Made by a program: the position numbers and the translations under genes
Notes under the pieces: generated by a model
Databases searched by the model: none
Told to the model about the DNA's origin: nothing
Seen by the model: only the letters and a program-made list of their open reading frames with translations
Virus record (IMG/VR): IMGVR_UViG_3300011008_000034
Coordinates: 1 to 64,000 of that record
DNA length: 64,000 nucleotides
Source: a virus
Lineage: Duplodnaviria; Caudoviricetes
Strand: one strand, 5' to 3'
In this document: piece by piece, positions 4,373-58,639 of the stretch
Layout: the number at the start of each line of letters is the position of its first letter
Position numbering within the stretch: position 1 is the stretch's first letter

Positions 4373-4433
4373 ACAACTCCTTCCTTATTATGATTATATT
4401 ATACCACAAAAGGAAGGAATTGTAAATAGTTTT
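4373..4433 (-). promoter_or_regulatory. sigma-A-type promoter inside an RBS-sequestering inverted repeat
   Basis: AAAACTA-TTTACA(4426-4421)-17bp-TATAAT(4403-4398); arms 4410-4423 and 4373-4386 pair and cover the RBS. Confidence 0.8.
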
Positions 4434-4965
4434 ATTTAAGTTTATCTATATTAGTACGTTTGTTTTTTAATTCAACTTGATTTACAGCATATTTTTTCAT
4501 AGATTCTAAATCATCATATGCTCTATCTCCAGGAGAAAAAATATATTTATCTACTTTAATCCCTGCATCATTTATTATATTTGTACAAACACTATTTGCT
4601 TGGCAATTAAATTCTTTTGATTCTAGCATTCCGCCATCTTTATTTCCTTTTCTATCAAGTTTATAAAATGAAGCTAAAGTTACTACATCATCATAACCGT
4701 ATTTCCTAAATTCACAACATTCACATAAACCATATATGATATCAGTAACACCAAGAGGCGGTTCCTCATACATGTAAAAGTAGGTTTCATCTGTTTGAAT
4801 CCACCATTCCTGGTCTTCTGGATAAATTTTAGGGTCTTGACCAGATGGAGTATTGTCTTTTATTTCCTGAAGATGTTTTTTAGCATCATCCTCGGTAATA
4901 AAATAACGTTGATAATCTTTAATGGTTTTTAAATCTTTTAAATTTGCCTTTATTAATTTTGACAT
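4432..4965 (-). CDS. module gene A, family A1 (basic leader MSKLIKA)
   Basis: near-duplicate of 7112..7648; homologous to 23676 and 42031. Confidence 0.8.
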   Translation of the reverse strand: MSKLIKANLKDLKTIKDYQRYFITEDDAKKHLQEIKDNTPSGQDPKIYPEDQEWWIQTDETYFYMYEEPPLGVTDIIYGLCECCEFRKYGYDDVVTLASFYKLDRKGNKDGGMLESKEFNCQANSVCTNIINDAGIKVDKYIFSPGDRAYDDLESMKKYAVNQVELKNKRTNIDKLK

Positions 4966-5131
4966 ATTTTTCACTTCCTTAAATAATTTATATAAATAAA
5001 ATACAAATGCAAGGAAAAAATCTTACATTTGTATTAATAAATTATTTAGGAAATAAAACTTTATAAAAAAATAAATGAGATTATATATTACTATAATAGT
5101 ATCAATGAAAATTTTGAAAGGGGTTTTTATT

Positions 5132-5980
5132 ATGGAAGAATTAATGGTTGAATTTGAAGGATATTATTTATCTCCTCTAGGATTGGTTTTTGATATAGAG
5201 AAAAAAAATACTATTCCTCAGTATTTAAAAAATGATGAATTCTATGTAAAACTTAATGACAAAGAATATAAAGTAGATGAACTAATAGCTAAAAATTTAG
5301 TATTTAATCCAGAAAATCTTCCTTTATTAATCCATAAAAATGGTAATATCTTAGATAATCGTATTGCTAATTTACAATGGGTAAATAAAAATTATCAAAC
5401 AGAACAAGTCAAAAAAGAAGGAGACTTTGAATCTCCAGCTTATCATGTATTAAAAGTTCCTATCAATAAAATCATTTCAAACACATATAATCCTAATGCT
5501 GTTGGCGGACCAGAAACTCAACTGTTATATACATCAATTTTAGAAGATGGATATACAATGCCTATTGTTTGTTACTACAATAAAGAAGATGATATTTATG
5601 TTATAGTGGATGGATTCCATAGATATCAAACTATGATGAACCACAAGGACATCATGAAGCGTGAAGGTGGATATTTACCGGTTACTATAATTGACAAACC
5701 TTTAACTGACCGTATGGCTTCTACTATTAGACACAATAGAGCACGTGGTCAACATGATGTAACTTTAATGAGTAATATTGTAGCGACTATTCATAAACTT
5801 GGTCGAAGTGATGCTTGGATTAGCAAGCACATTGGGATGGATAAAGATGAGATTTTACGTTTGAAACAATTTAGTGGATTGGCTGAATTATTTAAAAATC
5901 AAGATTTTGATGAATGTGATTCGGCAATGCATAAGATTGTAATGAAAAACGGAAGAGCTCATGTAGTAAAGGATGAGTAA
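5132..5980 (+). CDS. ParB/Srx-like protein (IbrB/YbdM-like) with an N-terminal degenerate HNH-like segment
   Basis: NTYNPN, GYTMPIV, IVDGFHR, MASTIRHNRARG; N-terminal HKNGNILDNRIANLQWV; start uncertain (5075/5132). Confidence 0.85.
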   Translation: MEELMVEFEGYYLSPLGLVFDIEKKNTIPQYLKNDEFYVKLNDKEYKVDELIAKNLVFNPENLPLLIHKNGNILDNRIANLQWVNKNYQTEQVKKEGDFESPAYHVLKVPINKIISNTYNPNAVGGPETQLLYTSILEDGYTMPIVCYYNKEDDIYVIVDGFHRYQTMMNHKDIMKREGGYLPVTIIDKPLTDRMASTIRHNRARGQHDVTLMSNIVATIHKLGRSDAWISKHIGMDKDEILRLKQFSGLAELFKNQDFDECDSAMHKIVMKNGRAHVVKDE

Positions 5981-6169
5981 ATGTCAAACTATTTTAAATT
6001 TAATGCAAGCCAACCAAAAAAATTATATGGGAAAATGCAAATGAATGATACAGATTTGATTTTTTTAATTATAATTTATGATATCTTAGCAATGCATAAT
6101 TTAGATTATGTTTACAATTTAGATACGGAATTAATGAAAAGATACATAAATTTTTTTGGAGGGATTTAA
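5981..6169 (+). CDS. small hypothetical protein
   Basis: ORF abutting the upstream gene. Confidence 0.45.
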   Translation: MSNYFKFNASQPKKLYGKMQMNDTDLIFLIIIYDILAMHNLDYVYNLDTELMKRYINFFGGI

Positions 6170-6341
6170 GTTAATGAAGGAAAAAGAATGCTAACAATTA
6201 TGTCAATTTGTATATTCGTTCTTTTAACTGCGATTATGTTTTTTAAATAGGAATTACTTAAATAGTTATCTTGTTGTCTATTATTATGGAAAATAAAGAG
6301 GATTTATTCCTCTTTATTTTTAAATGAAAGGGTGATGGAAA

Positions 6342-6605: not shown

Positions 6606-6614
6606 TCCTCTTCT

Positions 6615-7049: not shown

Positions 7050-7054
7050 ATAAA

Positions 7055-7113
7055 ACAACTCCTTCCTCTATGATTATATTATACCATAGCAAGAAGGAAT
7101 TGTAAATAGTTTT
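7055..7113 (-). promoter_or_regulatory. sigma-A-type promoter inside an RBS-sequestering hairpin
   Basis: TTTACA(7106-7101)-17-TATAAT(7083-7078); arms pair with G-U on the minus strand. Confidence 0.8.
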
Positions 7114-7648
7114 ATTTAATTTTATCTATGCCTGTACGTTTATTTTTTAATTCAACTTCATTTGTTGCATATTCTTTCATTTCTTCCCATGTTTCATATG
7201 GAGAACCTTTCCCTGAAGAAAATATATATTTATCTACAGAAATTCCACCATCATTTTCTATGTTTTTGCAAACACTATTTAATTGACAATCAAATTCTTT
7301 TGATTCTAACATTCTACCATCTTTATTCCCTTTCCTATCAAGTTTATAGAATGATGCTAATGTTACTACATCATCATAACCGTATTTCCTAAATTCACAA
7401 CATTCACATAAACCATATATGATATCAATAACACCAAGAGGTGGTTCTTCATACATATAAAAATATGTTTCACCGGTTTGTACCCACCATTCTTGGTCTT
7501 CTGGATAAATTTTAGAGTCTTGTCCAGATGGAGTATTATTTTTTATTTCTTGAAAATGTTTTTTAGCATCTTCTTCAGTAACAAAATAACGTTGATAATC
7601 TTTAATCGTTTTTAAATCTTTTAAATTTGCTTTTATTAATTTTGACAT
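7112..7648 (-). CDS. module gene A, family A1
   Basis: paralog of 4432..4965; ATG 7648 after AAGGAGG. Confidence 0.8.
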   Translation of the reverse strand: MSKLIKANLKDLKTIKDYQRYFVTEEDAKKHFQEIKNNTPSGQDSKIYPEDQEWWVQTGETYFYMYEEPPLGVIDIIYGLCECCEFRKYGYDDVVTLASFYKLDRKGNKDGRMLESKEFDCQLNSVCKNIENDGGISVDKYIFSSGKGSPYETWEEMKEYATNEVELKNKRTGIDKIK

Positions 7649-7783: not shown

Positions 7784-8074
7784 TTATTTTACATCAATAC
7801 TTTTTCTAATGCTTTGAGATAATTTATCAATTTTTCCAATATAAGACCTTAATGTATTTGTAAGTGCATAAAAATTAGCCTCAATATTAGGATTATTATA
7901 TTTTGTCATGGTACCAAAATAAGATTTTGGCAAATTATCCAATGTATCAGATTCTTCTAAAATTGCTTTTGAAGCAGCCCATAAATTTTTTACTTCTTCA
8001 TCAACTTTATCTAAGTGAGATAAATAATCTGTTTCATCAATTTCTACATCAGCTTTGCGTATTAATCTTTTCAT
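7784..8074 (-). CDS. hypothetical protein with MKRLIRKA leader
   Basis: ATG 8074 after GAGAGGG; the longer ORF-track start overlaps the upstream gene. Confidence 0.65.
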   Translation of the reverse strand: MKRLIRKADVEIDETDYLSHLDKVDEEVKNLWAASKAILEESDTLDNLPKSYFGTMTKYNNPNIEANFYALTNTLRSYIGKIDKLSQSIRKSIDVK

Positions 8075-9501: not shown

Positions 9502-9507
9502 CTCTCC

Positions 9508-9951
9508 TTATTCACTAATTTTTACATCTTTTATGTTTGTATTAGGTACTGATATGATATAGTGAATGATATAATGAACTTCTTCAGGATGTTTATTATG
9601 AGGATAAGGAATAAATTCATGTCCCCAATATGCATGTTCATCCTGATGAATAATGATATTTTTTCTTAAAATTAATTCTGGATTTACATGATTTCCAGTT
9701 TTCTTATTAATAATGTAAAAAACATCATCGCCAACTTGTAATTGTTTGATATATACATTATCTTCAAAAGGGACTAATTCATTATCAATATGATAATCTT
9801 TATCATATACTTTTACAGAATTCTCGTAAAACCATGCAAGATATGATTTTTTATCTTGATAATCACGATAGTATATATATCCAACTGCAAACGCCAACAT
9901 TAACATTACGAATATCATAATGATTGTGTATAATTTTTGTATTTTTGTCAT
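9508..9951 (-). CDS. membrane-anchored hypothetical protein
   Basis: N-terminal TM helix. Confidence 0.7.
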   Translation of the reverse strand: MTKIQKLYTIIMIFVMLMLAFAVGYIYYRDYQDKKSYLAWFYENSVKVYDKDYHIDNELVPFEDNVYIKQLQVGDDVFYIINKKTGNHVNPELILRKNIIIHQDEHAYWGHEFIPYPHNKHPEEVHYIIHYIISVPNTNIKDVKISE

Positions 9952-10562
9952 TGTATTCTCCTTATTAAATTGTGAATAAAATCAAATTCATATACATTTT
10001 GTTTAAAAAATTTTTTCCAGTTTACTCCATCATTTTTTTCAATAATGATTTTATCACCAATTTTGTCACCAAATAGTATTGGTTTATTTTTTATTCCCAA
10101 TATATTTTCCATATTTCGAACATTATTCGATAAAACTTCTACATTTGAAAAATTTTTTTCTAATAATTCTTTATGTGAATTACATCCTTGTAATAATTGA
10201 TTGTCATATATGATAACTGGACAATCTCTATAAGGAGCATCTACACTAAAATTCAAGTCTGTTTTATACCAAACATCTTTTTTGCATTTATTTAAATCAT
10301 CAATTGTATAAATATCACATTGATTATGAACATGTTGTTCTCTAGCATATATATAGTACAAACTTTGCACCGTAAAATAAATGTATTTAAATGCATTATC
10401 TGGTAATTCATATTTTTTTAATATCGATTTTACATGTCGTAGTTTTAGTTTTGTACAATGCATTCCTCGATTATACATCTTCTCCAAAAGAAAATCGATA
10501 TCAAATTCGATATCGCTATTTTGATAAATGTATTGCCAATTTTGAAATGTCATATTTATCAC
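9948..10562 (-). CDS. hypothetical protein, paralog of the adjacent 10559..11374
   Basis: shared C-terminal domain F.VD.P.RD...SH.E...PI.FGD.IG. Confidence 0.75.
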   Translation of the reverse strand: MINMTFQNWQYIYQNSDIEFDIDFLLEKMYNRGMHCTKLKLRHVKSILKKYELPDNAFKYIYFTVQSLYYIYAREQHVHNQCDIYTIDDLNKCKKDVWYKTDLNFSVDAPYRDCPVIIYDNQLLQGCNSHKELLEKNFSNVEVLSNNVRNMENILGIKNKPILFGDKIGDKIIIEKNDGVNWKKFFKQNVYEFDFIHNLIRRIQ

Positions 10563-11374
10563 ACTTTCTTTGCTAATCTTTTTACTTTATTTTCTGTTTG
10601 ATGATATTGATAAACTTTTTTAAATTTCTTTTTTACGATATTAACTGCTTCGGATTCGGAAATATTTTGATAACTTTCTATAAATCCTAAATTCCCAATT
10701 CCATCTCCAAAAATAATAGGAGCATTTAGATCTGCATTTTCTACATTTTCTATATCTCTAAGATTAATAGATTTTGCACTATTATCACCAAAAATATGAT
10801 TAATAATTTCTGTATGAGAATTACAATTTAATTCATCACCCATATACCATTTTCCATTATAAACCACAAAACAATAATCTCTAACAGGAACATCAATTGT
10901 AAATTTTTTTCCTACATTATGTTCATCGCCAATTTCATCTTTAATAGTATTTAATTCATCACATTCTTCTATATCTACATCTTCATTTTGATTTTTTTCT
11001 GATATGATGAATCGATACCAATCCTGAATATACTCATAAATAAACTTGAAAAAATCTTTTTGTTTAATGTAATCTTTTAATTCATTTTCAGAATCAAAAT
11101 CAATTTTTTCTCTATTATTAATAAATTTAATAATTTCTTCGTAATCTGATTCGTTATACAAATCATTACACATATCTTGTTTGATTTCAGTGGAACGAAG
11201 ATTTTTCTTATATGCTCGTTCACATATATCGTCTATTAAATCTTCAAATTTATAACTTCCTTGAATAATATAAGCAAATAATCGTTCGTCAGGGTTTTCT
11301 CCTTTTTCCTTCCAAGTTTTAAACAATTCACTTAAATTTAGACTTGCTTTTTTTAATCGTTTCAAATTAATCAC
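10559..11374 (-). CDS. acidic hypothetical protein with KRLKKA leader
   Basis: ORF with GAGGTG RBS; promoter TTTACA(11435-11430)-17-TATAAT(11412-11407). Confidence 0.75.
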   Translation of the reverse strand: MINLKRLKKASLNLSELFKTWKEKGENPDERLFAYIIQGSYKFEDLIDDICERAYKKNLRSTEIKQDMCNDLYNESDYEEIIKFINNREKIDFDSENELKDYIKQKDFFKFIYEYIQDWYRFIISEKNQNEDVDIEECDELNTIKDEIGDEHNVGKKFTIDVPVRDYCFVVYNGKWYMGDELNCNSHTEIINHIFGDNSAKSINLRDIENVENADLNAPIIFGDGIGNLGFIESYQNISESEAVNIVKKKFKKVYQYHQTENKVKRLAKKV

Positions 11375-17808: not shown

Positions 17809-18258
17809 TTAACTGATTCTTAAATTTGCATTAGACGGAAGAAGATGCACATAGTAAACATTATTATTATCACGTTGAAATTCATGCGTCTCAATGAAAT
17901 CTCCCCACCCATTATAGTAATTAAGCTTTACGTAATTTAAAACTTTATTCTTTGTTTCGTTAGAAAAACGTTTATTACATATGATGTTTAAATTAGATTT
18001 TTCCGTTCCCAAAACGAAATTTACATTAGTAACTATTTCATCTTTCTGACACATTCCTTGAATATCATTTTTAAAAGCATCTTTTACTTTCTCAAATTCT
18101 GATTCAACAAATTCAATCATTTTCATGAAAAGATCATCATCTAATTCTTCTGGGGATATTACTTTTTCATCACTTGAATTTAAACTATAAACAGCGACTT
18201 TATAATTTCCAACAATACTAAAGTTATAAATTGTGTCTGCTTTTTTTAATCTTTTCAA
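17809..18258 (-). CDS. hypothetical protein with MKRLKKA leader, paralog of 18269..18772
   Basis: shared FSI.GN, CNK.FS.ETK, Y..GWG...E.H.F. Confidence 0.75.
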   Translation of the reverse strand: MKRLKKADTIYNFSIVGNYKVAVYSLNSSDEKVISPEELDDDLFMKMIEFVESEFEKVKDAFKNDIQGMCQKDEIVTNVNFVLGTEKSNLNIICNKRFSNETKNKVLNYVKLNYYNGWGDFIETHEFQRDNNNVYYVHLLPSNANLRIS

Positions 18259-18268: not shown

Positions 18269-18772
18269 TTAACCAATATGTAAATCTACATTATCTGGAG
18301 AAAGTTGAACACATAATTCTTCAGTCGCTCCATAATAATCTTCACTTTCTCCAGAACTAAATGGATGTTGTTCTAAACCTTCTCCCCATCCATCACTGTA
18401 TTGTCCACTAATAACATCCATAATGGCTTCTTTTGTTTCTTGAGAAAATGGTTTATTACAATAAACATGCATATAACTATGTTTATCATCACAATCAAAT
18501 TGAAGGTCTACTACTACTTCACCTTCCTGACATTTTTCTTGGCACTGCTCTTTAATGATTTCTTTCGTTTCATCATCAAAATCATTAATAGCATATTCTG
18601 CACCTTCTTCGTTTACGCCAAGATAACTAATTTCTTCATCAACAAATTCATATTCGCCATCATCATTTTGCGAATCGCCTGTAACCCAGCCATATGTTCC
18701 TACATTTCCAATTATAGAAAAACTATCATTCCATTCCGCAGCTTTCTTTAAACGTTTTGCAATTACATTCAT
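18269..18772 (-). CDS. acidic hypothetical protein with KRLKKA leader
   Basis: GQYSDGWGEGLEQ motif; paralog of the neighbouring gene. Confidence 0.75.
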   Translation of the reverse strand: MNVIAKRLKKAAEWNDSFSIIGNVGTYGWVTGDSQNDDGEYEFVDEEISYLGVNEEGAEYAINDFDDETKEIIKEQCQEKCQEGEVVVDLQFDCDDKHSYMHVYCNKPFSQETKEAIMDVISGQYSDGWGEGLEQHPFSSGESEDYYGATEELCVQLSPDNVDLHIG

Positions 18773-36040: not shown

Positions 36041-36293
36041 ACCTTAATGTAATTGCTATTCCATTTTTATCTTGGACGATTAGATATTCTTTTCCCTTAT
36101 TACAATCTCTTAAGATTGTAACTTGAATATCATCATATGTTTCTGCTTTTTCTAAAATAATTTCATCTGTAGAAAATTTTTGAGAATGTACTTTTTTCTC
36201 TCCAATATTTAATAGCAGAGTAATGATAAAAATAGGGATTAAGAAACACTATATTCCTATTAAGATATTTAAGTTGTCCTTTACTTTTTTCAT
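36039..36293 (-). pseudogene. small membrane protein gene with one in-frame TAG (codon 15)
   Basis: ATGA-coupled to the dnaE stop; reads MKKVKDNLNILIGI*CFLIPIFIITLLL...ILRDCNKGKEYLIV. Confidence 0.5.
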
Positions 36294-37832: not shown

Positions 37833-38135
37833 CACTTAAAAAGTGGACTATCCCATCACCTAAACGGTGCCGATATTATAGTCTCTGAACGTCTAATCAA
37901 AATAATAGATTCATTATTTTGATTATTTCGATGCTGATTGGTTGTTGTTTATGATACTTAGCATTTTCAGCTTATATCCAAAATTTAATTTTTTCTGTCT
38001 TTCGACTGCGATTCACACTTATTTTTACAAATTATGTTGTAGCTTAAATTTTGTTCAACGTTCCCAGCAGTTTAATCGGTTTTTCATCCTATCTTTCGAT
38101 ATGAAGCCACATGTTTATACGAAACGTATACGTCT
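37833..38135 (-). ncRNA. group I self-splicing intron (303 nt, no ORF) in dnaE
   Basis: P AACUGCUGGGAA, Q AAUCAGCAUC, R GUUCAGAGACUAUA, S GGAUAGUCC; 5' exon ends in U (CCAU pairs with GUGG, U-G wobble); intron ends in G; P10 AACAU/AUGUU; splicing restores FNKSH-SICY. Confidence 0.92.
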
Positions 38136-39460
38136 ATGGAATGTGATTTATTAAAGAGATATGCACTATTGTCAATAATCGCTTTTGTTACTTTTTGACA
38201 TGCTTCTTTTGGAATTCCATTTTCTAATCCAATTCGTTCAGCATTATCATAAAAGTACTGAGCTCTATCTTTATTTTTCTTTTTATCTGGTTTTTCCAAA
38301 GCACGACGATAAATATCACTTTCACCAAAAGAAATATTAAACAGAATTGATATTAGAGACATTACCTGTTCTTGATATACTATACCTCCCATTGTAGGAG
38401 CTAAAACATCATCAAAAGGTTTATATCCCATTAATCTGATTTTTTCAGGGTCTTTTTTTCCTTCTACATATTCATCTAATCCTGAAGTACCAGGACGAAT
38501 AAATGCATTTACAGCAGATAAAGATTCCATGTCTTGTGGCTGGATTTTTTTAATTACAGGCTGTGCTGCTGCGCCATCCATCTGAAAAATACCTTTTAAA
38601 TATGCAGCTTCACAAATAAAATCCCATGTTTTTTTATCATTTAATGGAATGGACATTTGTGTATAATTTTTATTGTAATATTGATTAATCATCTTTAATT
38701 CTTCGACAATAATATCAATATTCTTTAAACGCAATATATCGTATTTTATTCCACCTAATAAATCGACTTCTTCTTTACAATATTGAGAACAATCCCAAGT
38801 ATTCCCTGTATCAGTTGGTTTAGAAGATTTAACAGGAATAATATCTGTAACACTTAATTCATTTGGTAATACAACAATTCCTGCAGGATGCTGAGAAACA
38901 GACCGAGGTAAATTTGCAAATACTTTACTATATTTTAGAATGTCTGGATAACGATCAAAAAATTCTTTAATTTCAGGAATAACCAAAATATCATCAAACG
39001 TTTTCATATCATTTGTGATTAATTTAGTAATATTATTTGCTTCTTGCGGTTCAATTTCATATACTCTAGCTACATCCTTAATAACTGCTTTTATCTTTAA
39101 ATTTTGAAATGTAGCAATATTACAACAGTGCTCTCGTCCCCAACGTTGATTACAAAAATCATAAATTTCGTCAGACCGTTTATCAGAGAAGTCGTTGTCT
39201 ATATCTGGAATTACGAGGTGAGTTTCTCCCTGGTCGTCTTTATATGTTCTGGCAGGATTTAAAAATCTTTCAAACAAAAGCTGATATTCGATGGGATCAA
39301 CTTGAGTAATATCTAATGCATAATTCAATAATGACCCTGCACCTGAATTATGTACGATTAGTTTATCTACATTATAAGAATGTTGGTCTCGTACTTCTAA
39401 ATCATATATATCTCCTTTATAGTGAAAAATTTCTTTCTTTTTTATTCGCCTAAATTTCAC
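38136..39460 (-). CDS. dnaE: split-intein C part (38 aa) fused to the DNA polymerase III alpha catalytic core (exon 1 of dnaE-C)
   Basis: YDLEV...HSY....LIVHN|SGAGSL; LLFERFLNPAR, PDIDND, HPAG, KYDIL, GIFQ, YQEQ, FNKSH; IntC = 39347-39460. Confidence 0.93.
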
Positions 39461-39533
39461 GAGATATCCCTCCTTTTAATTTTATTTTAGAAAAAAAGAC
39501 TAAGATTTAATTTCTTAGTCTTAGATAAATGCA

Positions 39534-41018
39534 TTATTTACTTTTCAAATAAAAACCATTAAATGATTGGTTTGTATTAACAATTTTTTTATATGTTTTA
39601 TAAACAATTCCAAATAATGGATAAAGTAATTTTATGCAATTAAATTCTATTATGTATTCTCCATTTGTTAAAAATAAATCTATTGGCTTTACATTTTTTC
39701 GTATTTTACATTCAAATCGAAGATAAGTAAAATTTTCAAATCCTTTCAATTTATATGTATTTAAATCAAAATCATGAAATAAATCATCGTTATACAAATA
39801 TGTACAAATAAGATTGTTTTGTTTATCAAAGACTTTTGTTACTGTTTTATTTCTTTTTACATTTGCTAATTCTCTATATATACGATTACTTTTTAAAAAA
39901 TTTAATGTTTTTTGGGGAATGTTTTTTTCAGTACATTTTTTTACAACATTTATTCGTTCATCATGATTTAAATTTAATAAATTTATCTGTTTATTAAAAA
40001 TTACAACGTTAAATAAATCATAAAATTGTTGTTGACCAGCTGTTTTACATACAGAAAAGTTATTAAAATTCCGATAAAAAACAAGTTGAATTATTTTTGG
40101 AATATATAAATCTTGAGAAACATAGTTATCATTAAAAATGTGTTTATATTCATAATAAAATTTTATAAGATTAAAAAAAGAATTAAAACAATAAAGTATT
40201 TCTATATGATGATATTTATCATCACATAATTGTTTATGAACATTTCCCCATTGATAATGAACATGTGTTTTATTGTTTTTCAAATCAACGCACTTGTAAA
40301 TAAACCCTAAATAATCATTCGTCTTTTTTATATGTTTTGTTAATGGAACATTAAAAAAAATAACATCATTAAGAAAATTTTGATAAAAATTAATGCTATT
40401 TAAATCAAAAGGAATTAAATTTAATAAAATTTCCTCATTAATAAAACAAAATACCATGTTATGTTTTTTACAAAAAATTTGTGCCGCTTTTTTCTTTTTA
40501 TCAGAACTTGTACTTTCTTTTCCTTTAATTTCAAAAATTGTATTATTAATGATAAAGTCTGGATGAAAAGTTTTATTTTCATAAGAGATGTTTATGTCAC
40601 AACGTTTAACATTTAACTTGTTTTGATAACAAGAATATAAAAATGCTAACTCATAACTACTTTCAAATTTAATTCCATGATAAAATCCAGTTAAATTATT
40701 TTGATGGATATAACATTCTTGACAAACTTGTTCAAATTTTTTATGTTTTCTCTGCGTTAAAAAAGATACTGTTACATATTTTTCTTTATGACAATATTGA
40801 CATGTTATTTGTACTTTAATGCTTGAATTTTTTTTAAATTCATTCCTATAAGTTAAAAACATATCATAAATAATAAATCCATTTTTATCATAAAAAATAA
40901 AAATAAATTCTGGAATTTTATCTTTATAGTGGTTATTAAAAGTACTCATATTATCACCTCTTATTTTTTTATAAGAAAAAAGACTAAGTTTCGTTCTTAG
41001 TCTTATCGGTAAATGCAT
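39534..41018 (-). CDS. free-standing putative homing endonuclease (PD-(D/E)xK type with zinc finger)
   Basis: CQYC...CQEC, GFYHGIKFESSYEL, HPDFII...EIKG; likely start 40949. Confidence 0.6.
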   Translation of the reverse strand: MHLPIRLRTKLSLFSYKKIRGDNMSTFNNHYKDKIPEFIFIFYDKNGFIIYDMFLTYRNEFKKNSSIKVQITCQYCHKEKYVTVSFLTQRKHKKFEQVCQECYIHQNNLTGFYHGIKFESSYELAFLYSCYQNKLNVKRCDINISYENKTFHPDFIINNTIFEIKGKESTSSDKKKKAAQIFCKKHNMVFCFINEEILLNLIPFDLNSINFYQNFLNDVIFFNVPLTKHIKKTNDYLGFIYKCVDLKNNKTHVHYQWGNVHKQLCDDKYHHIEILYCFNSFFNLIKFYYEYKHIFNDNYVSQDLYIPKIIQLVFYRNFNNFSVCKTAGQQQFYDLFNVVIFNKQINLLNLNHDERINVVKKCTEKNIPQKTLNFLKSNRIYRELANVKRNKTVTKVFDKQNNLICTYLYNDDLFHDFDLNTYKLKGFENFTYLRFECKIRKNVKPIDLFLTNGEYIIEFNCIKLLYPLFGIVYKTYKKIVNTNQSFNGFYLKSK

Positions 41019-41320
41019 TATTCTTCTTTATAATTATAAGCTTCGCTTGCTCCTTCAATATCTCCAGAATAATCAAGTAATTTATTTGAAATGGATAATA
41101 CATCTCTTACTGTTTCTTCTACATTTTCAGCCATAGAACCAAGATTATCATACCAACCTTGAAGTTGTTCATCACATTCTTGACCCATTTTATAAACAGG
41201 TCCACCTTTTTTTACTAAATCGTAAATATCTTCTAATTGATAAGCAATTTCTTCTAATTTTTGAGTATATTGAGGAAAATTATTTGCAGCTACTTTTTTT
41301 AATTTTGCCAATTTTATCAC
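41018..41320 (-). CDS. acidic helical protein with AKLKKVA leader
   Basis: AAGGAG RBS, late-type motif upstream. Confidence 0.7.
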   Translation of the reverse strand: MIKLAKLKKVAANNFPQYTQKLEEIAYQLEDIYDLVKKGGPVYKMGQECDEQLQGWYDNLGSMAENVEETVRDVLSISNKLLDYSGDIEGASEAYNYKEE

Positions 41321-42030: not shown

Positions 42031-42621
42031 ATGAATAAATTTTTAATAAAAAATCTCTATAAAAATAAATCTCCTATCCGGAGTAGAATTATAATAGCAA
42101 ATATATATAAAAAATTTGCAAACTTTTTAGATGATTTAAAAAAATTTAAGAAATTTGAAAAGTACTTTATAACAAAAGAAGATTCTGATAAATTAGTAGA
42201 AGAAAAAAAGAAAAATGAAGAAGGAATTTATGATAATGATTTAGAATGGTGGGAACCAACAGGCAAATTAGAAGAATTTTATATGGCTACTCATCCAGGA
42301 AATGGTGGATTAACGCCTTTATATGCGAAATGTCATATGATAGAATTTATACGTAGAGGAAATAGTTATCCAGCATGTTTAGCAGCATTATATAAATGTG
42401 ATGAAAATGGAAAAGAATCTGGTTCTATGATAGGTTATGAATGTTATGAAGATACTACTATAGCGCAAGGATTAAAAAACATGATAGATAAAGGCATGAA
42501 AGGTTGGGGAAAACAATATCATTGTTATGGAAATATTTATTATGATATAGAAGATTTGAAATTAATAGTAATAAAAGCATATGAACAAATTAATAAAGAT
42601 ATAAAAAAAGAGGAGAAATAA
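42031..42621 (+). CDS. module gene A, family A1
   Basis: DDLKKFK.FEKYFIT.ED, EWW..TG, LA.LYK.D.NG...G.M. Confidence 0.78.
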   Translation: MNKFLIKNLYKNKSPIRSRIIIANIYKKFANFLDDLKKFKKFEKYFITKEDSDKLVEEKKKNEEGIYDNDLEWWEPTGKLEEFYMATHPGNGGLTPLYAKCHMIEFIRRGNSYPACLAALYKCDENGKESGSMIGYECYEDTTIAQGLKNMIDKGMKGWGKQYHCYGNIYYDIEDLKLIVIKAYEQINKDIKKEEK

Positions 42622-43735: not shown

Positions 43736-43993
43736 TCACTTTTCTCTTTTTTGTAGTCTTTTTTTACCTTCGCATCCTCCAAAATCTCCGCCTATACTTA
43801 AATCATAGCCTTGATAAGACCCGCCAGCACTGTCACTAGAACTATCAGTTGCTCCGTAATCATCTCCGCCATAATTTCCTGCATTATCATAATAATCACC
43901 ATAGCCCCAAAGCCAAGGATAACCATAAAAAGCATGATACGGGTACTGATTTGAAGGAGTTTTTTTTACTAATCTTTTCAAACTAATCACCAT
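43736..43993 (-). CDS. Gly/Tyr/Asp-rich low-complexity protein with KRLVKK leader
   Basis: ORF translation. Confidence 0.6.
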   Translation of the reverse strand: MVISLKRLVKKTPSNQYPYHAFYGYPWLWGYGDYYDNAGNYGGDDYGATDSSSDSAGGSYQGYDLSIGGDFGGCEGKKRLQKREK

Positions 43994-44261: not shown

Positions 44262-44925
44262 ATAGAGTCATTCCTACTTTATTGACATAATCTCCATATA
44301 TAATAGAAATAGTTTCCATTAACTGTTCAAATTCTTGACATGTATATAAATATTTAATTGGCTGATTATTATAATCAATATTGATTCGATAAAATATATC
44401 TTTTCTTTTAAAAATATCTACCAATGAATATTTATCCATATTTTTTAAAATAGCATTGATGTCAATAAATAATCTATTTCGTTGAGAAGTAAAATTATAA
44501 TCGCAATATGCTAATATAAATGGAAAACAAACTTGTTGAACATATTTTTCTATATCTTTTTGTCTAATCATACATTCATAATGTAAAAAATTATCACTAA
44601 ATAAAATTTCTTTTATTGATACAATTTTGACATCTATTCCAACATTATAGATAGAATTAAAATCAATGCCTGTATATTTATCATTAGTAATACTATAAAT
44701 AGATTTGTCTCCTTTATATGTAAAAAATCTTTTACATAAATTGCTTTCATAAAAATCTATTTCCGCCATACGCCCTTCAATTAATCGTTCTTCAAATTCT
44801 TCTAAAGGTTGGATAGTTTTTTGATATATTGGCATAGTAATATCATTGAATATGGGTGATGTTTGAACTAAATGTTTCATAAAATTTGATTGATATTTAG
44901 CTAATAATTTCTCCTTTAATCTCAT
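44248..44925 (-). CDS. hypothetical protein
   Basis: coupled ORF. Confidence 0.65.
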   Translation of the reverse strand: MRLKEKLLAKYQSNFMKHLVQTSPIFNDITMPIYQKTIQPLEEFEERLIEGRMAEIDFYESNLCKRFFTYKGDKSIYSITNDKYTGIDFNSIYNVGIDVKIVSIKEILFSDNFLHYECMIRQKDIEKYVQQVCFPFILAYCDYNFTSQRNRLFIDINAILKNMDKYSLVDIFKRKDIFYRINIDYNNQPIKYLYTCQEFEQLMETISIIYGDYVNKVGMTLYDNY

Positions 44926-45967
44926 TATATTTTTCCTTTAATATATGATATAAAATAAATTGATTGGATTGAATGATTTTATCATATTCTGTAAAAAACA
45001 TATCATCATTCATATTCTGGAATTGTTTGACACGTTTTTTCTCTCTTAAATAAAACCAGATGTTTTTAAATGCTTCATCTCTATCTGAAATACATTTAAA
45101 TTTATTATATATGGTTTGAAAAATATCATGATTTTTATAATAAAATTTATCTTGTCTCCATGAAACTGGATAATTAAAAATAATTAAATCTTTTTGTGGA
45201 ATAATTTTTATATCATCATTACTTCTAAAATCTGTATAAATATCTTCTTTGAAAATGACTTTATATTTTAAATTATTACGTTTTGCAAGCTGCATTCCGG
45301 CAAAACAACGCTCATTGTAATCTAATGGTTTTGCCGCATACACTTCTATGATTTTTTTATCCATAATAATATTGGGGCGATAATAATAAGTTTCATTTTT
45401 ATATTGATACGAAGTAAATAAAGTACAGTTTTTAGTATTAATATGTTCATATAAAAAATTTAATTCTGTAGTATTAGAAAAAAATACACCTTTATATAAG
45501 CCACATAAAGAATTTTTAATTTTAAATACTTTGCGAATAATATTCTCTTCGTTTGTTTTTGGTTTTTGCAATCTTTTCCTTGGTTTAGGCGGTTTTTTTG
45601 GACGAGATTGATTAATGCGGACTGATATACAAGAATTACAAATTGATTCGTCTTTAAAATGTTGTCTGGCTTTTAATTGCCGAACTTGTTTGATTTCTGT
45701 TGTGTTACATTTTTTGCAAACATATTTAACATATTGTTTTGAAAATTCAGAAAAATATTCCTTATATTTAAAATAAATGTCATAAGAAAGAGGATATTGT
45801 TTATCCCCTTTTATATAAAAAAGTTCTTCTGGAAAATTTTTAGTTTTTAATTGTTTTACAGTACTATAACAACGTCCACATAAATTTTCTTTTAATCCTA
45901 AATTTTTTCTGTCTTGAATTTGGTTGTCATTTAGAGTAATTTCTTTTTTACATCTTTCACAAATCAT
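44897..45967 (-). CDS. degenerate homing-endonuclease-like protein (paralog of 46223..47380)
   Basis: CxxC pairs, GLYKGVFF...EL.FL; the PD..ExK site reads PN...EVY. Confidence 0.6.
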   Translation of the reverse strand: MICERCKKEITLNDNQIQDRKNLGLKENLCGRCYSTVKQLKTKNFPEELFYIKGDKQYPLSYDIYFKYKEYFSEFSKQYVKYVCKKCNTTEIKQVRQLKARQHFKDESICNSCISVRINQSRPKKPPKPRKRLQKPKTNEENIIRKVFKIKNSLCGLYKGVFFSNTTELNFLYEHINTKNCTLFTSYQYKNETYYYRPNIIMDKKIIEVYAAKPLDYNERCFAGMQLAKRNNLKYKVIFKEDIYTDFRSNDDIKIIPQKDLIIFNYPVSWRQDKFYYKNHDIFQTIYNKFKCISDRDEAFKNIWFYLREKKRVKQFQNMNDDMFFTEYDKIIQSNQFILYHILKEKYNEIKGEIIS

Positions 45968-45987
45968 TATTGGTCGGCCTTTCTTAA

Positions 45988-46257
45988 TTACTCAATTTCA
46001 CAAAGTACGTCATCTTCTTCTAATTTTCCGGCTTCTATCCAAATTGGAATTCTTACTCCATTATCGAAGTCTTCTTTTTTTATGGCTAGTATTTTGTGAT
46101 CCTGAGTAATTCCCTCAATTTTTAGATTATTATCCATATACAATTTTACCATATTTTCGTCCACATGGTAAATAAATTTACTATCAACTATATGTAATTG
46201 TTCGTCTTTGGAGTAAACAACATCACACTTTAATTTGTCCATTTTTTGATTGTTCAA
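45988..46257 (-). pseudogene. orphan truncated copy of the dnaE split-intein N part
   Basis: GITQDHKILAIKKEDFDNGVRIPIWIEAGKLEEDDVLCEIE nearly matches the end of 47381..48871; lacks Cys1 and the extein. Confidence 0.8.
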
Positions 46258-47380
46258 AAATATAAAATATGATAAATAACGGAGAATCTAAAACTTTTAA
46301 ATATTCTTCGGTGAATTTACTTATTGACATACGATTAAATTTATTGACCAATTTTTTCTCTTTTAAGAAAAACTGAATATTGTTCATCATTGATTCTCTA
46401 TTTGTATCTTGTTTATATAATGCTAATAAGTCTTGTACCCATTTTTTGTTTTTATAATAATATTTATTATTTTCAGTATCCCATAATTTTGGATAATGAG
46501 TTAAAATTAATTCATCATCTGGAATTTTTTCTAATAATTCAGGCTCATCAAATTTTTCAATAATGCAATTAGCATCATACAAAAGATATTGCATGTTATG
46601 TTCTTTTGCTAATTTTTTTCCAGCATTACATTTGTTTATATAATCATCAAAACAATTTTTTTCATTAGAATCAAAACTACCCTTATTTCCTTTTACTTCA
46701 ACAATATAATTATTCATAATAAAATTAGGAAAGTAATAATGTAATTTTTGGTCTTTTTTACGAATATATTGTGTATATAAATTACAGTTTGAAATTTGCT
46801 TATCTTGATTTTCATATAAAAACGATAATTCAAAACTACTAGCAAAGTAAATCCCTTTATAAAAACCACGTAATGTATTACTTTTTCCAAATGTACGTTT
46901 TATTGCAAAATACGGGTCTGATTTAACTAAAACTTCTATTGAGTCTTTTATCTTATTTTTTACTTCATCTTTACATTGAACTTTTTTCTGAGCTTCACTA
47001 TTTTTTTGTTTCCATTCTGGTAAATTGCAAACATATTCCATAATATGGTTAGGACAGATGTTTAAGTCTTTTGTATATGTTTTACGTTTTAATCCGCGTG
47101 GTTGATTTATAAATTCTTTACCACATACTAAACAATTAAATTTTACATATTCATGATTATGCATTGTGAATAAATCTTTATATTTTACATACAAATCCCA
47201 AGGAATAGGATTTAATTTTGTTCCTAAATACCATAATTCCTGAGGACGATTTTTCTTAATATATGATTTTACAACTCTAAAACATCGAGGACATGTATCT
47301 ATATGTATACCTAAATCTTTTCGTTTTTGAATTCCTTTTTCTTTTTGCGGAAATTCCTTTCCACATCTAATACATTTCAT
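46223..47380 (-). CDS. homing-endonuclease-like protein abutting IntN
   Basis: CxxC pairs, GFYKGIYFASSFEL, YFPNFI...EVKG (PD changed to PN). Confidence 0.65.
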   Translation of the reverse strand: MKCIRCGKEFPQKEKGIQKRKDLGIHIDTCPRCFRVVKSYIKKNRPQELWYLGTKLNPIPWDLYVKYKDLFTMHNHEYVKFNCLVCGKEFINQPRGLKRKTYTKDLNICPNHIMEYVCNLPEWKQKNSEAQKKVQCKDEVKNKIKDSIEVLVKSDPYFAIKRTFGKSNTLRGFYKGIYFASSFELSFLYENQDKQISNCNLYTQYIRKKDQKLHYYFPNFIMNNYIVEVKGNKGSFDSNEKNCFDDYINKCNAGKKLAKEHNMQYLLYDANCIIEKFDEPELLEKIPDDELILTHYPKLWDTENNKYYYKNKKWVQDLLALYKQDTNRESMMNNIQFFLKEKKLVNKFNRMSISKFTEEYLKVLDSPLFIIFYIFEQSKNGQIKV

Positions 47381-48871
47381 TTACTCCACCTCGCACAAAA
47401 TATCTCCTTCTTCTAATTTATTTGCTTCAATCCATATGGGAATTCTTATACCATTATCAAAATCTTTCTGCTTTATTGCTAAAACTTTATGGTCTTTTGT
47501 AATTCCCTTAATAATATTATCATTTGTAGATAAAGAAACTAAATCTTCATTGACATTATAAATATATTTATTATCAACAGGATATAATTTTTCATTTTTA
47601 GCAAAAACTAAATTGCCTATTTGAATGTCTTTAATTTGTTTGAATCCATGATTTGTTAAAACGTTACAATCTCCAACCAAGCATCCTCTCCCACTTCCGC
47701 AAGGTATTTTTGCTTTATTTCGCACAAAATCAATAATCTCACGATATAAAATAAAGTATGTTTCAAATCCCATTTCTTCGATTGTTTTTAATTCATGTAA
47801 TGCGCGAATTCGATCACTTTTAGTTAAACACCATTTTTGGACCAATCCATTTAAAAATTCATATTCTAAATATTGGGTTTTGTCTTTTTTATCGGATTTA
47901 ATCTGTTCTTTCCAGTAATTATAAGCTTCATCATCTTGAGGAATTTCTGCAGATGGCAAATAATGATTTAAGGTTTTTAATTCTACATTACATTGACTTG
48001 CAATATCTTCCGTTCGTTCAATAGCATCTAATACTAATTTTTGATTTAAATCTCCATGAAAATCTTGAAATGCTTTTATGATTTCATCTTTAGTCATGAT
48101 ATAATAAGTATTTCCTTCATATGTCCACCTGTCAGGATTGCTCATAACATCTTTTGACTGCATACATAATAATACATCATGAGCTTCTTTAAATGTTTTA
48201 TTAATGTAATGAGCATCAGTTGTAGCCACTGTAGGAATTCCCATTTCTTGACTTAATTGCAATAATACTTCATTGACTATTCCTTGCTGTTTAATTACAG
48301 TAGGCTGGATTTCTAAATAAAAATTATGATTGAATAATTTATCATAATAGGCAATCCATTTTTTAGCTTCTTCTATATCATCTTTTAAAATGCACCTGGG
48401 AATTCTTCCTGCAACACATGCAGATGTAGCTATTAGATGGTCTGTCCCAATTTCTTCTAGCATACTATCATCAATACGTGGACGATAATAAAATCCTTTT
48501 GTAAATCCTAAACTAGATAATTTTGAAATTTGTTTATATCCTTCGTAATCTTTAGCTAAAATAATCATATGTTCATTTGGATGGTCTTTGTAATGTTCTT
48601 TGTCTTTATTCAAAGCATCATCTGTTACATAAAATTCTTCTCCAATAATCTGATGAATATTATAATTTTTACATAAATTATAATGAAACATTGTGGCATA
48701 TAAATTCCCATGATCTGTAATGCAACTATGTATCGTATGATTTTCATTATGTTTTTGATTAAATTCTTCTGTAATTGCTTTATTTCTTACTACTAAATCT
48801 TCCATTCTTAAACAAGAATCTAATAACGAGTATTGGGAATGTACATGTAAATTGACAAACATTTTTGGCAT
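47381..48871 (-). CDS. dnaE: DNA polymerase III alpha N-terminal part (PHP domain) fused to split-intein N part (100 aa, 47384-47683)
   Basis: LHVHSQYSLLD, TDHGN, FYYRPRID, TTDAHY, GSGRG|CLVGD (intein block A), GITKDH (block B), ends L..GD.L. Confidence 0.93.
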   Translation of the reverse strand: MPKMFVNLHVHSQYSLLDSCLRMEDLVVRNKAITEEFNQKHNENHTIHSCITDHGNLYATMFHYNLCKNYNIHQIIGEEFYVTDDALNKDKEHYKDHPNEHMIILAKDYEGYKQISKLSSLGFTKGFYYRPRIDDSMLEEIGTDHLIATSACVAGRIPRCILKDDIEEAKKWIAYYDKLFNHNFYLEIQPTVIKQQGIVNEVLLQLSQEMGIPTVATTDAHYINKTFKEAHDVLLCMQSKDVMSNPDRWTYEGNTYYIMTKDEIIKAFQDFHGDLNQKLVLDAIERTEDIASQCNVELKTLNHYLPSAEIPQDDEAYNYWKEQIKSDKKDKTQYLEYEFLNGLVQKWCLTKSDRIRALHELKTIEEMGFETYFILYREIIDFVRNKAKIPCGSGRGCLVGDCNVLTNHGFKQIKDIQIGNLVFAKNEKLYPVDNKYIYNVNEDLVSLSTNDNIIKGITKDHKVLAIKQKDFDNGIRIPIWIEANKLEEGDILCEVE

Positions 48872-50610: not shown

Positions 50611-50663
50611 CTCTTTTCTTGAATTTATTATATCACAGAAAAGAGGTGTTGTAAATAGTTTTT
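50606..50663 (-). promoter_or_regulatory. sigma-A-type promoter inside an RBS-sequestering hairpin
   Basis: TTTACA(50655-50650)-17-TATAAT(50632-50627); perfect 14-bp arms 50637-50650 / 50606-50619. Confidence 0.8.
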
Positions 50664-51181
50664 TATATATTTTTCATTGCGACATTAAATGCTTCATCAA
50701 AAGTTTCAAAATTACCTATAGTTGCATATGAATCAATTGTATCACCACTAGTTGCTGAAAATTTATTTTTAACTTGCCCGCCGTATACATCATATCTTTT
50801 TACAAATGGGTCTTTTCTGACTAATTTATCTGGAGTAACATTTTCTTTGGTCGATAACATTTGTCCTTTTGTATCATGTGGCCATGAAATTAAAAATGTT
50901 TCATAACGTCCTGTTTTATTAATTTCTTTAAATGTATAGATTTCATTATAAAAAATAATTGGAAATTTTATAGTTTCCTTTTCTTTATTTGTTAATGCTT
51001 GATAACAATAAAATCCATAAAATCCAATTTCTCGATTAAATGTACCTACTCTTTCATATTTACTTTTATCTAATACATAACCATATCCTTTGTCTTCCAA
51101 AATTTTTAAACAATCTTCATCTGAAAATGGACTATTAGCATTATTTTGTACAGCACTAAAATGTTTCACTAATCGTTTCAT
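50663..51181 (-). CDS. module gene A, family A2 (MKRLVK leader)
   Basis: homologous to the C-half of 57731..58639 (FSDE.C, PIIFYNE.Y.F, ET.L.SW..D..G). Confidence 0.78.
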   Translation of the reverse strand: MKRLVKHFSAVQNNANSPFSDEDCLKILEDKGYGYVLDKSKYERVGTFNREIGFYGFYCYQALTNKEKETIKFPIIFYNEIYTFKEINKTGRYETFLISWPHDTKGQMLSTKENVTPDKLVRKDPFVKRYDVYGGQVKNKFSATSGDTIDSYATIGNFETFDEAFNVAMKNI

Positions 51182-52607: not shown

Positions 52608-52611
52608 TATT

Positions 52612-55850: not shown

Positions 55851-55922
55851 CTCTTTTTTATTTTATTTAAAATACTAAAAAAGCAAGCCTCACATTTTAT
55901 GGCTTGCTTTATCATTTATGTG

Positions 55923-57044: not shown

Positions 57045-57189
57045 GTGAAATCACTCCTTTATTTTATTGTACCATAAATTTTTATAACTGTACAAATTAA
57101 TAAAAGGAGGAAAATCCCTCATTTTATCTAACTCATTCATTGTTAACATCTCCTTATGAAAAAGAGAGGACATTTTAATCCTCTCTTTT

Positions 57190-57666
57190 TCAAATTAAAT
57201 CTTTAAATTTATTTTTAATTGTCTTTTCTATTTTTTGAGCATTTTCATTTATAATGTACTTTTTATTAAAAATTTCTTTATTAAAATAAACACAATAATT
57301 TTCATTATATTCAAATTTATCTTTTACATAAAAAGTTATTTTTAACGTATTTGTATTAATTATTGACAATCTTATATCATTTTTTTTATGATTTTCAATT
57401 CCTTCGTATAAAATAATTAAATCGTATTTTTTTAATAAAGTATTTTTTTCTTTTATCATTTCTCTATCAAAAAAAACAACATTTTTTTCACCTATACAAT
57501 CTATAGCATTTGTATAAAAATGAAAATACATTTTATCATTATCATTATTTTCTTCATTAAGAAGAGGATATATACAAATATGTTTTTTATGTTTTGCCAT
57601 TTTCATTAATTTTACAATTATTTTATTAGCAATTAATTGCATTCTTTCATTTTCAATATCAAACAT
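57190..57666 (-). CDS. module gene B, family B2
   Basis: close paralog of 60414..60872. Confidence 0.78.
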   Translation of the reverse strand: MFDIENERMQLIANKIIVKLMKMAKHKKHICIYPLLNEENNDNDKMYFHFYTNAIDCIGEKNVVFFDREMIKEKNTLLKKYDLIILYEGIENHKKNDIRLSIINTNTLKITFYVKDKFEYNENYCVYFNKEIFNKKYIINENAQKIEKTIKNKFKDLI

Positions 57667-57693
57667 CGTTCCTTACCTCCTTTTCTTATTTCC

Positions 57694-57731
57694 ATTATAT
57701 CAAAAAAAAAGCTATTTGTAAATAGCTTTTT
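57694..57731 (-). promoter_or_regulatory. sigma-A-type promoter overlapping a terminator hairpin
   Basis: TTTACA(57722-57717)-17-TATAAT(57699-57694); AAAAAGCTATTT/AAATAGCTTTTT hairpin plus U tract. Confidence 0.78.
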
Positions 57732-58639
57732 TATTTTGAGTTTTTCTTAAGATTATTTTTTGCATCATTATAGGCATCATTATATGATGAATATATATCA
57801 CAAATGTTATATCCTGATGAAAGTGTTATTCCATGTGATTTTATTTGATTTTTAATATCTTTAGGATTATTATCAATTTTTGTTATAAATGTATCTCTTA
57901 TTTTTAATTTATCTTTTGTATTATTTTCCATAATGTTACCACTAACATCATACATCCAAGATAATAATATTGTTTCAAAATTCCCGTTAGAATCATTTTT
58001 TGAAAATGGATACATTTCATTATAAAAAATAATTGGATAATCAACATCTAATTCAGAAATTTGTCTAGAAAAAAATCCTTCACAACCTTGATTATTATAA
58101 TATGCACGTTTATATTTATTTTCATCAAGTAAATATGAATATTCTGATTTTCTTATGTAATCAATGCAAGTTTCATCTGAAAAACTAGGTTCTAATATAT
58201 TAGGAACCTTAGATAAGCGCTTCATTCTTTTGAATAATTTAGACTCTTTTAAGTCTGGTCTTCTTTCAGATTCTGAACTAGATGTATCTTTATAGTAATA
58301 ATCAATTTCATCTGGATCATAACTATCAGAAATAGATTTATTAATCAAATCAAGTTCGCTTTTGCTATGAATAGTGTCATCTTTGATTATCTTGTCAAGA
58401 TGCGAATCTAAAGCTAACCGGTCATCATTGTAATTTTGATGAATATTGTTATCATATAAAAAATATTGTAAGATACTTTCGTCCCAATTAGAAAAATGGT
58501 CTCTCATCCATGTCCTAAACATTTTTCCAATTTTATCACATTCAATTACATCATCGTCAAAAATGTCTAAACAGTATTTCATAGTCACTATCACTGACTT
58601 TCTTTTCCTACGAGGCTTAGCAAGTCGTTTCAAAATCAA
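57731..58639 (-). CDS. module gene A, family A2, with an extra N-terminal domain (fusion)
   Basis: leader KRLAK and internal MKRLSK at the start of the A2-homologous half. Confidence 0.75.
   Translation of the reverse strand: MILKRLAKPRRKRKSVIVTMKYCLDIFDDDVIECDKIGKMFRTWMRDHFSNWDESILQYFLYDNNIHQNYNDDRLALDSHLDKIIKDDTIHSKSELDLINKSISDSYDPDEIDYYYKDTSSSESERRPDLKESKLFKRMKRLSKVPNILEPSFSDETCIDYIRKSEYSYLLDENKYKRAYYNNQGCEGFFSRQISELDVDYPIIFYNEMYPFSKNDSNGNFETILLSWMYDVSGNIMENNTKDKLKIRDTFITKIDNNPKDIKNQIKSHGITLSSGYNICDIYSSYNDAYNDAKNNLKKNSK

Follow-up and report, generated by a model that had tools for sequence, protein, structure and literature searches.

Encapsulins load their cargo by terminal peptides onto an HK97 fold. 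The scaffolding protein of phage P22 has an acidic body with a basic capsid-binding end, and the core proteins of T4 are also acidic. In T4, a capsid-targeting sequence (CTS) of the proteins IPI-III and Alt was reportedly described by Mullaney and Black and is said to be removed by the gp21 prohead protease. The N-terminal leaders of the capsid and scaffold proteins of Staphylococcus phage 80alpha and of ribosomal protein L27 are, according to what is attributed to Wall et al. 2015, cleaved by Prp. The present work concerns a short basic word of the type MKRLxK, referred to below as the tag, that opens many small proteins encoded by the virus record IMGVR_UViG_3300011008_000034 (Duplodnaviria; Caudoviricetes). 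The window, that is, the whole stretch of DNA analysed, covers the leading 64 kb of one virus contig (G000), which is 177,647 bp long and has a G+C content of 28%. An earlier note on this stretch had taken the tag for a new capsid-targeting and processing signal of ejected head proteins.

Enrichment and conservation of the tag

The motif K[KR]L.[KR] was scored in the first 12 residues of 177 contig proteins and was observed at 12 of these N-termini. Shuffling within each N-terminus gave a mean of 0.81, and a column shuffle, which retains the position-specific, Lys-rich composition, gave 0.66; none of 2000 shuffle runs went above 6, and 0.3 was expected from the internal-window rate. The enrichment against shuffled N-termini that the earlier note had named as a check is thus present. 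All 11 N-terminal words cited there, an internal MKRLSK and both C-terminal words were found in the sequence (minus strand). Four extra leader genes lie on the contig past the window (71249, 93238, 108564 and 120182), which gives 15 tagged genes in total. About one in twelve contig proteins, small and acidic, has a tagged start.

Alignment of 61 leaders gives M-K-[RH]-L-[IKR]-[KR]-[KAQ]-[AS], with three to four positive charges, and the information content is at background level immediately past the Ala. Met directly precedes Lys in 50 of the 61 leaders, while 3-7 residues precede the word in about a sixth of them. Six genes probably start at a TTG that lies a few codons inward from the coordinate first given and 4-5 bases behind GGTGAT, so that K-R-L would directly follow the initiator Met. 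Arg is encoded in the leaders by AGA, CGA, CGT, CGG and CGC, and the Lys and Leu codons vary too, which argues for selection at the protein level rather than for a DNA repeat.

The varying Arg codons and third positions exclude a nucleotide-level repeat or RNA element. Slippage on A-runs was dropped, as such runs occur in only some leader copies. A secretion signal (Sec, lipoprotein or Tat), which needs an H-region of at least 12 residues, was rejected as well, there being no hydrophobic region after the word: the Kyte-Doolittle maximum 15-residue mean within the first 45 amino acids (aa) does not exceed 1.06 in any of the 15 proteins. No paper with the strings MKRLIKK, MKRLKKA, MKRLIKA or KRLIKKA was found, and PMC4870245 deals with a jumbo phage that is unrelated.

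The tag in the phage G group

Bacillus phage G is the nearest cultured relative of the contig, its DnaE-like polymerase being 34% identical across 99% of the length. Gene starts on the contig are preceded by strong Firmicute-type ribosome-binding sites, GGAGGTGAT. A degenerate DNA pattern made of a ribosome-binding site and MKRLxK was found at 37 places in 2.9 million viral contigs. Few of these sites had real open reading frames (ORFs); they were on contigs of 504, 416, 110 and 68 kb, three of which (G001, G003 and G004) are phage-G-like. Their TerL is 52-75% identical to that of phage G (in G001 and G003, 58-61% along the entire protein). For the major capsid protein (MCP), G001 and G003 reach 76-86% identity with the phage G protein. 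The tag was counted in these genomes as follows.

G001 (complete, 504 kb): 20 of 714 proteins tagged, or 36 of 714 including an M-K-H-L-I-K-K-A variant; 1.1 expected
G003: 7 of 157 proteins tagged; 0.13 expected
G004: 7 of 88 proteins tagged; 0.18 expected
Phage G: 24 sites by the DNA pattern; 3 for the reversed control

In phage G itself, gp17, gp38 and gp53 start with MKRL[IV]K (MKRLIKKS in gp17), and gp20 has the variant start MSKKISRLKKTA. Other phage G proteins from the pattern search start at 73330, 81748, 147654, 207449, 244460, 254652, 255160, 258975, 348405, 388147, 401815, 446709, 450010 and 482110 of JN638751. The comparison of these genomes indicates that the tag is genuine and that phages throughout the phage G group employ it. 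The RefSeq annotation of phage G contributes nothing on the tag. Megablast and tblastn with a 1310-aa protein against the phage collection revealed no close relatives, and related-locus searches with the 11365 protein and with the 1310-aa protein gave no matches.

Tagged genes and their protein bodies

The tagged genes of the window, together with one paralogue having a degenerate leader region, are listed here; genes are named in the text by their start coordinate.

4432..4965, minus strand: family A protein, 177 aa, ATG at 4965, MSKLIKANL, a weak non-canonical form of the leader
7112..7648, minus strand: family A paralogue, 178 aa, ATG at 7648, MSKLIKANL, 82-84% identical to the 4965 protein
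7784..8074, minus strand: 96-aa protein, ATG at 8074, MKRLIRKAD, no detectable relatives
10559..11365, minus strand: 268-aa protein, (TTG)KRLKKAS at the start and KVKRLAKKV (10562-10588) at the end, early-type consensus promoter upstream
17809..18258, minus strand: family B protein, 149 aa, (TTG)KRLKKAD, between thymidylate synthase-like and dihydrofolate reductase-like genes
18269..18772, minus strand: family B paralogue, 167 aa, ATG at 18772, start MNVIAKRLKKAA
23676..24158, minus strand: family A protein, 160 aa, likely (TTG)NCIKKRLRRKLIIASL, with the family helix after the canonical KRL word
41018..41311, minus strand: 97-aa protein, likely (TTG)AKLKKVAA, a weaker form of the leader with no Arg
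42031..42621, plus strand: family A paralogue (BLASTP), degenerate leader region (MNKFLIKNL...RSRIIIANI)
43736..43981, minus strand: 81-aa Gly/Tyr/Asp-rich protein, likely (TTG)KRLVKK at the start and KKRLQKREK (43739-43765) at the end
50663..51181, minus strand: family C protein, 172 aa, ATG at 51181, MKRLVKH; orthologues start with M[ST]RLRK
57731..58633, minus strand: 300-aa fusion, likely (TTG)KRLAKPRRKRK at the start, internal MKRLSKVP (58202-58225), then a family C domain

The 11365 protein likely starts at the TTG behind GAGGTGAT rather than at GTG 11374, and for the 24158 protein the N-terminal word first cited was (M)NCIKKRLRRKLIIA. A G001 protein with the start MNIIAKRLRKKVANEW resembles the 18772 protein at its start; no body homology was detected between the two. 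The 60-aa leader gene 120182 has an ATGA overlap with the stop codon of the preceding 1209-aa ORFan (G000 120182 / 123808), an arrangement that suggests translational coupling.

The tagged proteins had been assigned to several unrelated families, which stands in part. There are about nine body types among the 15 proteins; seven of the 15, however, belong to one superfamily and two to another. BLASTP separated group A (4965, 7648, 24158 and, on the plus strand, 42031), group B (18258 and 18772) and group C (51181, the C-half of 58633, and 88668), while 108564 was placed in family C by phmmer and profile comparison. Families A and C are remote homologues (hhalign 91.5%, E 9e-7, 114 columns); the six remaining tagged proteins have no profile similarity to A or C. 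Pfam and PHROGs searches of the tagged proteins gave nothing credible, and their bodies are ORFans. A search of the ESM Atlas with the 4965 protein yielded no usable match, Foldseek against the PDB with two AlphaFold2 models gave best E values of 0.19 and 0.14, and a VIA-wide fold search with the family C model found no clear relative (best Z 5.0). Families A and C, with 42031-42621 and 57731-58225 among their members, together form one expanded superfamily of alpha/beta fold with confident AlphaFold2 models, and family A has 23 metagenomic representatives.

Two of the cited leaders are not canonical tags. The MSKLIKA of 4965 and 7648 corresponds to a helix located behind the canonical KRL word in relatives: MSKLIKANLKDLK of these proteins aligns with the helix after KRL in 24158 and in homologues from metagenomes, e.g., MNLIRKRLIKKS...DDLK. 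In the AlphaFold2 model of the 24158 protein, a confident helix is formed by residues 3-21 (pLDDT, predicted local distance difference test, 83-92). The alignment identifies the N-termini of 4965 and 7648 as look-alikes, i.e., the family's own helix, and not as clean tags.

In family C, the AlphaFold2 model of the 51181 protein has a mean pLDDT of 78 and a predicted template modelling score of 0.76; its body is confident, and residues 1-15 are unstructured, with pLDDT below 50. Judged by this model, the tag is detachable from the folded body. In orthologues of the 51181 protein with 55-67% identity, M-[ST]-R-L-R-K is conserved, and the linkers behind it differ in length. Untagged paralogues were found for family C (88668), for the 11365 protein (10553) and for gp17 of phage G (gp18). 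Comparison of these relatives indicates that the tag is portable, being gained and lost independently of the body.

The fusion protein 58633 is a further case. Its N-half is a separate 128-aa gene in G001 with the start MKRLGKPRRKRK, and the G001 protein stops exactly where the contig protein continues into MKRLSK (residues 137-142) and the family C domain. The internal copy is thus explained by a fusion that retained the leader of the second gene.

The bodies had also been described as often very acidic, and the isoelectric points (pI) bear this out. The median body pI on the contig is 4.86 versus 6.10 for the other proteins shorter than 320 aa (p = 2e-5). In the four genomes, the medians are 4.86, 4.85, 4.70 and 4.16, and those of the remaining small proteins are 6.10, 6.33, 8.47 and 6.33 (p = 1e-5 to 7e-9).

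Copies at C-termini

Similar words do end some proteins, as had been remarked: KVKRLAKKV in the 11365 protein and KKRLQKREK in the 43981 protein. The C-terminal word occurs in 11 of 1142 proteins of the four genomes versus 4.0 after shuffling (p ~0.002), and the internal rate would predict 2.3. Two such ends, for example, read ...KKTKHLIKKA-stop and ...KKKRLIKRS-stop. Behind each of these two there appears to be a hairpin resembling a terminator, with a G+C-rich inverted repeat and then a T-run. The C-domain of the 11365 protein is paralogous to the adjacent gene 9948-10553, which has no leader. It was considered whether KVKRLAKKV is a relic of the leader of this next gene; the word lies upstream of the ribosome-binding site of that gene and in another frame, and the idea is not supported.

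Possible relation of the tag to the phage head

The tag is most likely a portable docking peptide, a flexible basic tail that is nearly always N-terminal and sometimes C-terminal on small acidic proteins. Docking rather than propeptide processing is suggested by the C-terminal copies, which it accommodates. That docking serves capsid targeting and head loading has, from the sequences, about an even chance of being right. The basic tag would bind an acidic surface inside the assembling procapsid, for which the candidates are the acidic N-arm of the major capsid protein, the scaffold core or the portal. Tagged proteins would then be incorporated into the head beside the tagged gp17-like and gp20-like proteins of the head module. 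Later, they could be expelled or degraded like scaffold, or they could stay and leave with the DNA on ejection. A phage protease might also trim the tag, which forms the weaker part of this model, and cleavage after the Ala is doubtful. Packaging into the head, ejection, cleavage and the receptor are all inferred.

The best support for head loading comes from relatives and not from the contig, and it consists in tagged genes beside the prohead protease. In phage G, G001, G003 and G004, the gene order is portal (gp14 in phage G), gp15, gp16, a tagged gp17-like gene and the prohead protease gp19. A tagged gp20-like gene lies within a few genes after gp19 in phage G, G003 and G004, with the decoration protein and MCP downstream; in G001, the sole gp20-like match is located elsewhere. 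Further tagged genes adjoin TerL and MCP in the relatives. gp19 is annotated as a head maturation protease in PMC12484599. The particle proteome of that paper includes many replication proteins and would not discriminate.

Pfam gave no match for gp19. This protein and its homologues (L078:902-1822 and L069:3795-4754) have conserved His (FVDHxNxNVExARG) and Ser (DxSMGC) motifs. A leader-like ..LVKTAAK.. in the N-region of the prohead protease is too weak a match for use. The protease lacks the MKRL tag and has another conserved C-terminal tail, ..KLNNLPWS; it is unlikely to use the MKRL tag itself. The tail, invariant in the homologues as ..DKLxxLPW(S/T), may be the protease's own capsid-docking peptide.

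Several other observations, like the untagged protease, weigh against head loading. The contig has no head genes, and all 15 tagged genes lie among genes of replication and metabolism; at an estimated completeness of 36% (CheckV), no terminase, portal, protease or capsid gene was found on it, its content being replication and nucleotide-metabolism genes, with tail and baseplate genes at 137-177 kb. In G001, 9 of 36 tagged genes are near head genes versus 111 of 714 for all genes, a weak and non-significant difference (p = 0.09). No conserved residue past the Ala and no T4-type Glu site was found in the 61 aligned leaders, although a cut site of another type may exist. The MCP and portal are untagged. 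The tag is present on about 5% of the proteome, which makes a large cargo set. In family A, the leader region belongs to a helix that is confidently modelled by AlphaFold2. The C-terminal copies fit docking and not a cleaved N-terminal propeptide. Of the capsid-targeting and processing signal first proposed, what remains is therefore a shared and portable protein-level tag with an indirect link to the head, while a conserved cut site and a significant clustering with head genes are absent.

Promoters are to be considered here as well. Genes 11365 and 108564 are directly behind the conserved host-type promoter AAACTATTTACA-N17-TGnTATAAT, which suggests early expression and likewise speaks against a head role. 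For 11365, whose start had been placed at 11374, an early-type promoter had already been pointed out, and the consensus is indeed present upstream. The sigma-A-type promoter AAACTATTTACA-N17-TG(G/T)TATAAT has about 18 copies on the contig, those in the window being at 4398, 7078, 11407, 23640, 42674, 50627, 51765, 57694, 60889 and 63128, with about eight beyond. Five copies stand directly before small genes that follow leader genes or belong to the same modules (starts 4367, 7049, 23612, 57666 and 60872). This is probably the early promoter class of the phage. No late motif could be separated from the AT-rich background, the early-type consensus being the only one recognisable.

In a broader form of the docking proposal, the tag would be a general cargo-loading signal, effective at either end of a protein, through which small acidic proteins amounting to about 5% of the proteome attach to the acidic inside of an HK97-fold procapsid, in an encapsulin-like manner. 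The cargo, a large and exchangeable set of proteins, could be delivered with the DNA or serve as a disposable scaffold, with release perhaps by the M16 peptidase or ClpX. This broader reading is less likely than not.

Alternative explanations

The tag might dock to another partner outside the capsid: phage or host DNA, a membrane surface, a hub of replication or transcription, or its own acidic body, which it would mask. On the contig, the tagged genes lie among thymidylate synthase-like, dihydrofolate reductase-like, DnaE and SbcCD-like genes; in G001 they are dispersed genome-wide, some tagged genes have early-type promoters, and the charges of tag and body are opposite. However, eight residues with three or four positive charges are short for binding DNA or membrane alone, the conservation of Leu and Ala suggests a specific pocket on a protein, and the conserved tagged families in the head module would be a coincidence. 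A partner of this kind is fairly unlikely.

Alternatively, a protease or unfoldase could recognise the tag or be tethered by it, and the tag would then time the removal of the tagged proteins or the cutting of a presequence. The candidates are a phage ClpX with the ClpP of the host or, in phage G, of the phage, and an M16 zinc peptidase. ClpX reads short basic-hydrophobic words at either terminus, as in the SspB tail (LRVVK), the MuA C-terminus (RRKKAI) and the N-termini of Dps and lambda O; the tag likewise occurs at both protein ends. A full ClpX with the C4 zinc-binding domain is encoded on the contig past the window (82101-83261, minus strand). The contig protein belongs to a clade of ClpX genes from jumbo-phage contigs, with 48-77% identity. 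ClpX is also encoded in G001, and PMC12484599 gives both ClpX and ClpP for phage G, where ClpX is gp258. An M16 peptidase gene is conserved beside TerL in phage G (gp2), G001, G003 and G004.

M16B enzymes cut basic amphipathic N-terminal presequences, and the M16 family includes the mitochondrial presequence peptidase. The gene of this insulinase/MPP type, unusual for a head module, is located at 44615-46757 in G003 (L077:4615-6757), at 367584 in G001 and at 36510 in G004, and in G003 an S8 subtilase adjoins it. On the other side, the complete genomes G001 and G002 lack ClpP, as does the contig, phage G alone having it, and the contig has no M16 gene. The consistent acidity of the bodies is left unexplained, and the likeness to ClpX signals is putative, as are binding and cleavage. 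Complex prediction with a dimer of the ClpX zinc domain (residues 1-52), zinc and residues 1-40 of the 93238 protein gave no answer (score 0.00); run without controls, it speaks neither for nor against. A degradation or processing signal is a serious alternative reading of the tag, if an improbable one.

Pure common descent and a translation-start effect are both unlikely, markedly more so than the two preceding alternatives. Under the former, the shared N-terminus would be what is left of one old, fast-diverging paralogous family, with which the remote homology of A and C, the placement of nine of the 15 tagged proteins in two groups and the ORFan nature of all bodies are consistent. Yet the remaining bodies have no profile similarity to A or C, lengths (60-300 aa) and compositions differ, paralogues within a family differ in the tag (88668, 10553 and gp18), and the linkers between tag and body vary, so that this descent would be very hard to defend. 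The least credible proposal is that the word favours the start of translation, through a 5' coding region that is A-rich and free of structure or through the nascent peptide, and plays no part in the mature protein: it draws on the 50 of 61 copies that are exactly N-terminal, on A/T-rich codons, several with A-runs, and on Lys as the commonest residue at position 2 genome-wide, but the composition-preserving column shuffle gives 0.66 against 12 observed, Arg, Leu and Ala are kept despite synonymous changes, the abundant MCP and portal lack the word, the word stands after 3-7 residues in about a sixth of cases and also at C-termini, and the tie to acidic bodies is unexplained.

Significance

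Should the tag serve as an address for head loading, it would mark dozens of ORFans in each genome as virion cargo or scaffold parts. About 5% of the genes in the only megaphage clade under cultivation would thereby gain a first functional handle, and foreign proteins could be brought into very large capsids by a tag of eight residues. If it is a ClpX or M16 signal instead, a phage-private degradation or processing code would be at hand, likewise undescribed. Phage G is cultivable and bears the tag on gp17, gp20, gp38, gp53 and about 20 other genes, which makes the matter directly testable.

Other features of the window

The DnaE-like polymerase is apparently split over several ORFs in the window (36290-41018 and 44897-48871). 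Intein- or homing-endonuclease-like pieces lie between the DnaE ORFs, e.g., VKFRRIKKKEIFHYKGDIYD at 39460, with a counterpart in G001 at 264945. Two paralogous large ORFs, 2062-3582 on the plus strand and 61034-62488 on the minus strand, have the common N-terminus VLDKNGKPLMPCHSYGRVK(K/R)WLK.

Comparison with known systems

The tag of the phage G clade resembles the T4 CTS in being a short N-terminal peptide and a flexible tail on otherwise unrelated, dispersed proteins that look non-essential. As in T4, a prohead protease is encoded, here by the gp19 homologues of phage G, G001, G003 and G004, with none on the 36%-complete contig. The CTS, however, has about 10 residues, is not basic and ends in an (L/I)-x-E cut site, whereas the tag is basic with nothing conserved past the Ala. 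The T4 internal proteins are basic and the bodies of the phage G clade acidic; the clade also has C-terminal copies and many more clients (about 5% of genes). Packaging and cleavage, known for the T4 system, are putative for the tag.

The 80alpha leaders are likewise found in a Firmicute phage, and both are short N-terminal leaders that end in Ala, followed by Ser or Asp. The 80alpha leader differs in its sequence, (L)N-L-Q-F-F-A|S, in being cut by a host cysteine protease and in being confined to capsid and scaffold; the tag has no QFFA, and the MCP is untagged.

With the P22 scaffold and the encapsulin cargoes, the tagged proteins share an acidic body (pI 4.2-4.9 vs 6.1-8.5 in the four genomes) and a short basic terminal peptide that works from a terminus and could work from either end. 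The shell may be alike as well, the MCP of phage G (gp27) having an acidic N-arm, MSQLSNQEKEYLISKALETEEGR. The P22 element differs in being a helix-turn-helix of about 30 residues at the C-terminus, where most encapsulin peptides lie as well. In contrast, the tag of the phage G clade has eight residues, is mostly N-terminal and is carried by dozens of different proteins, with binding to the MCP putative.

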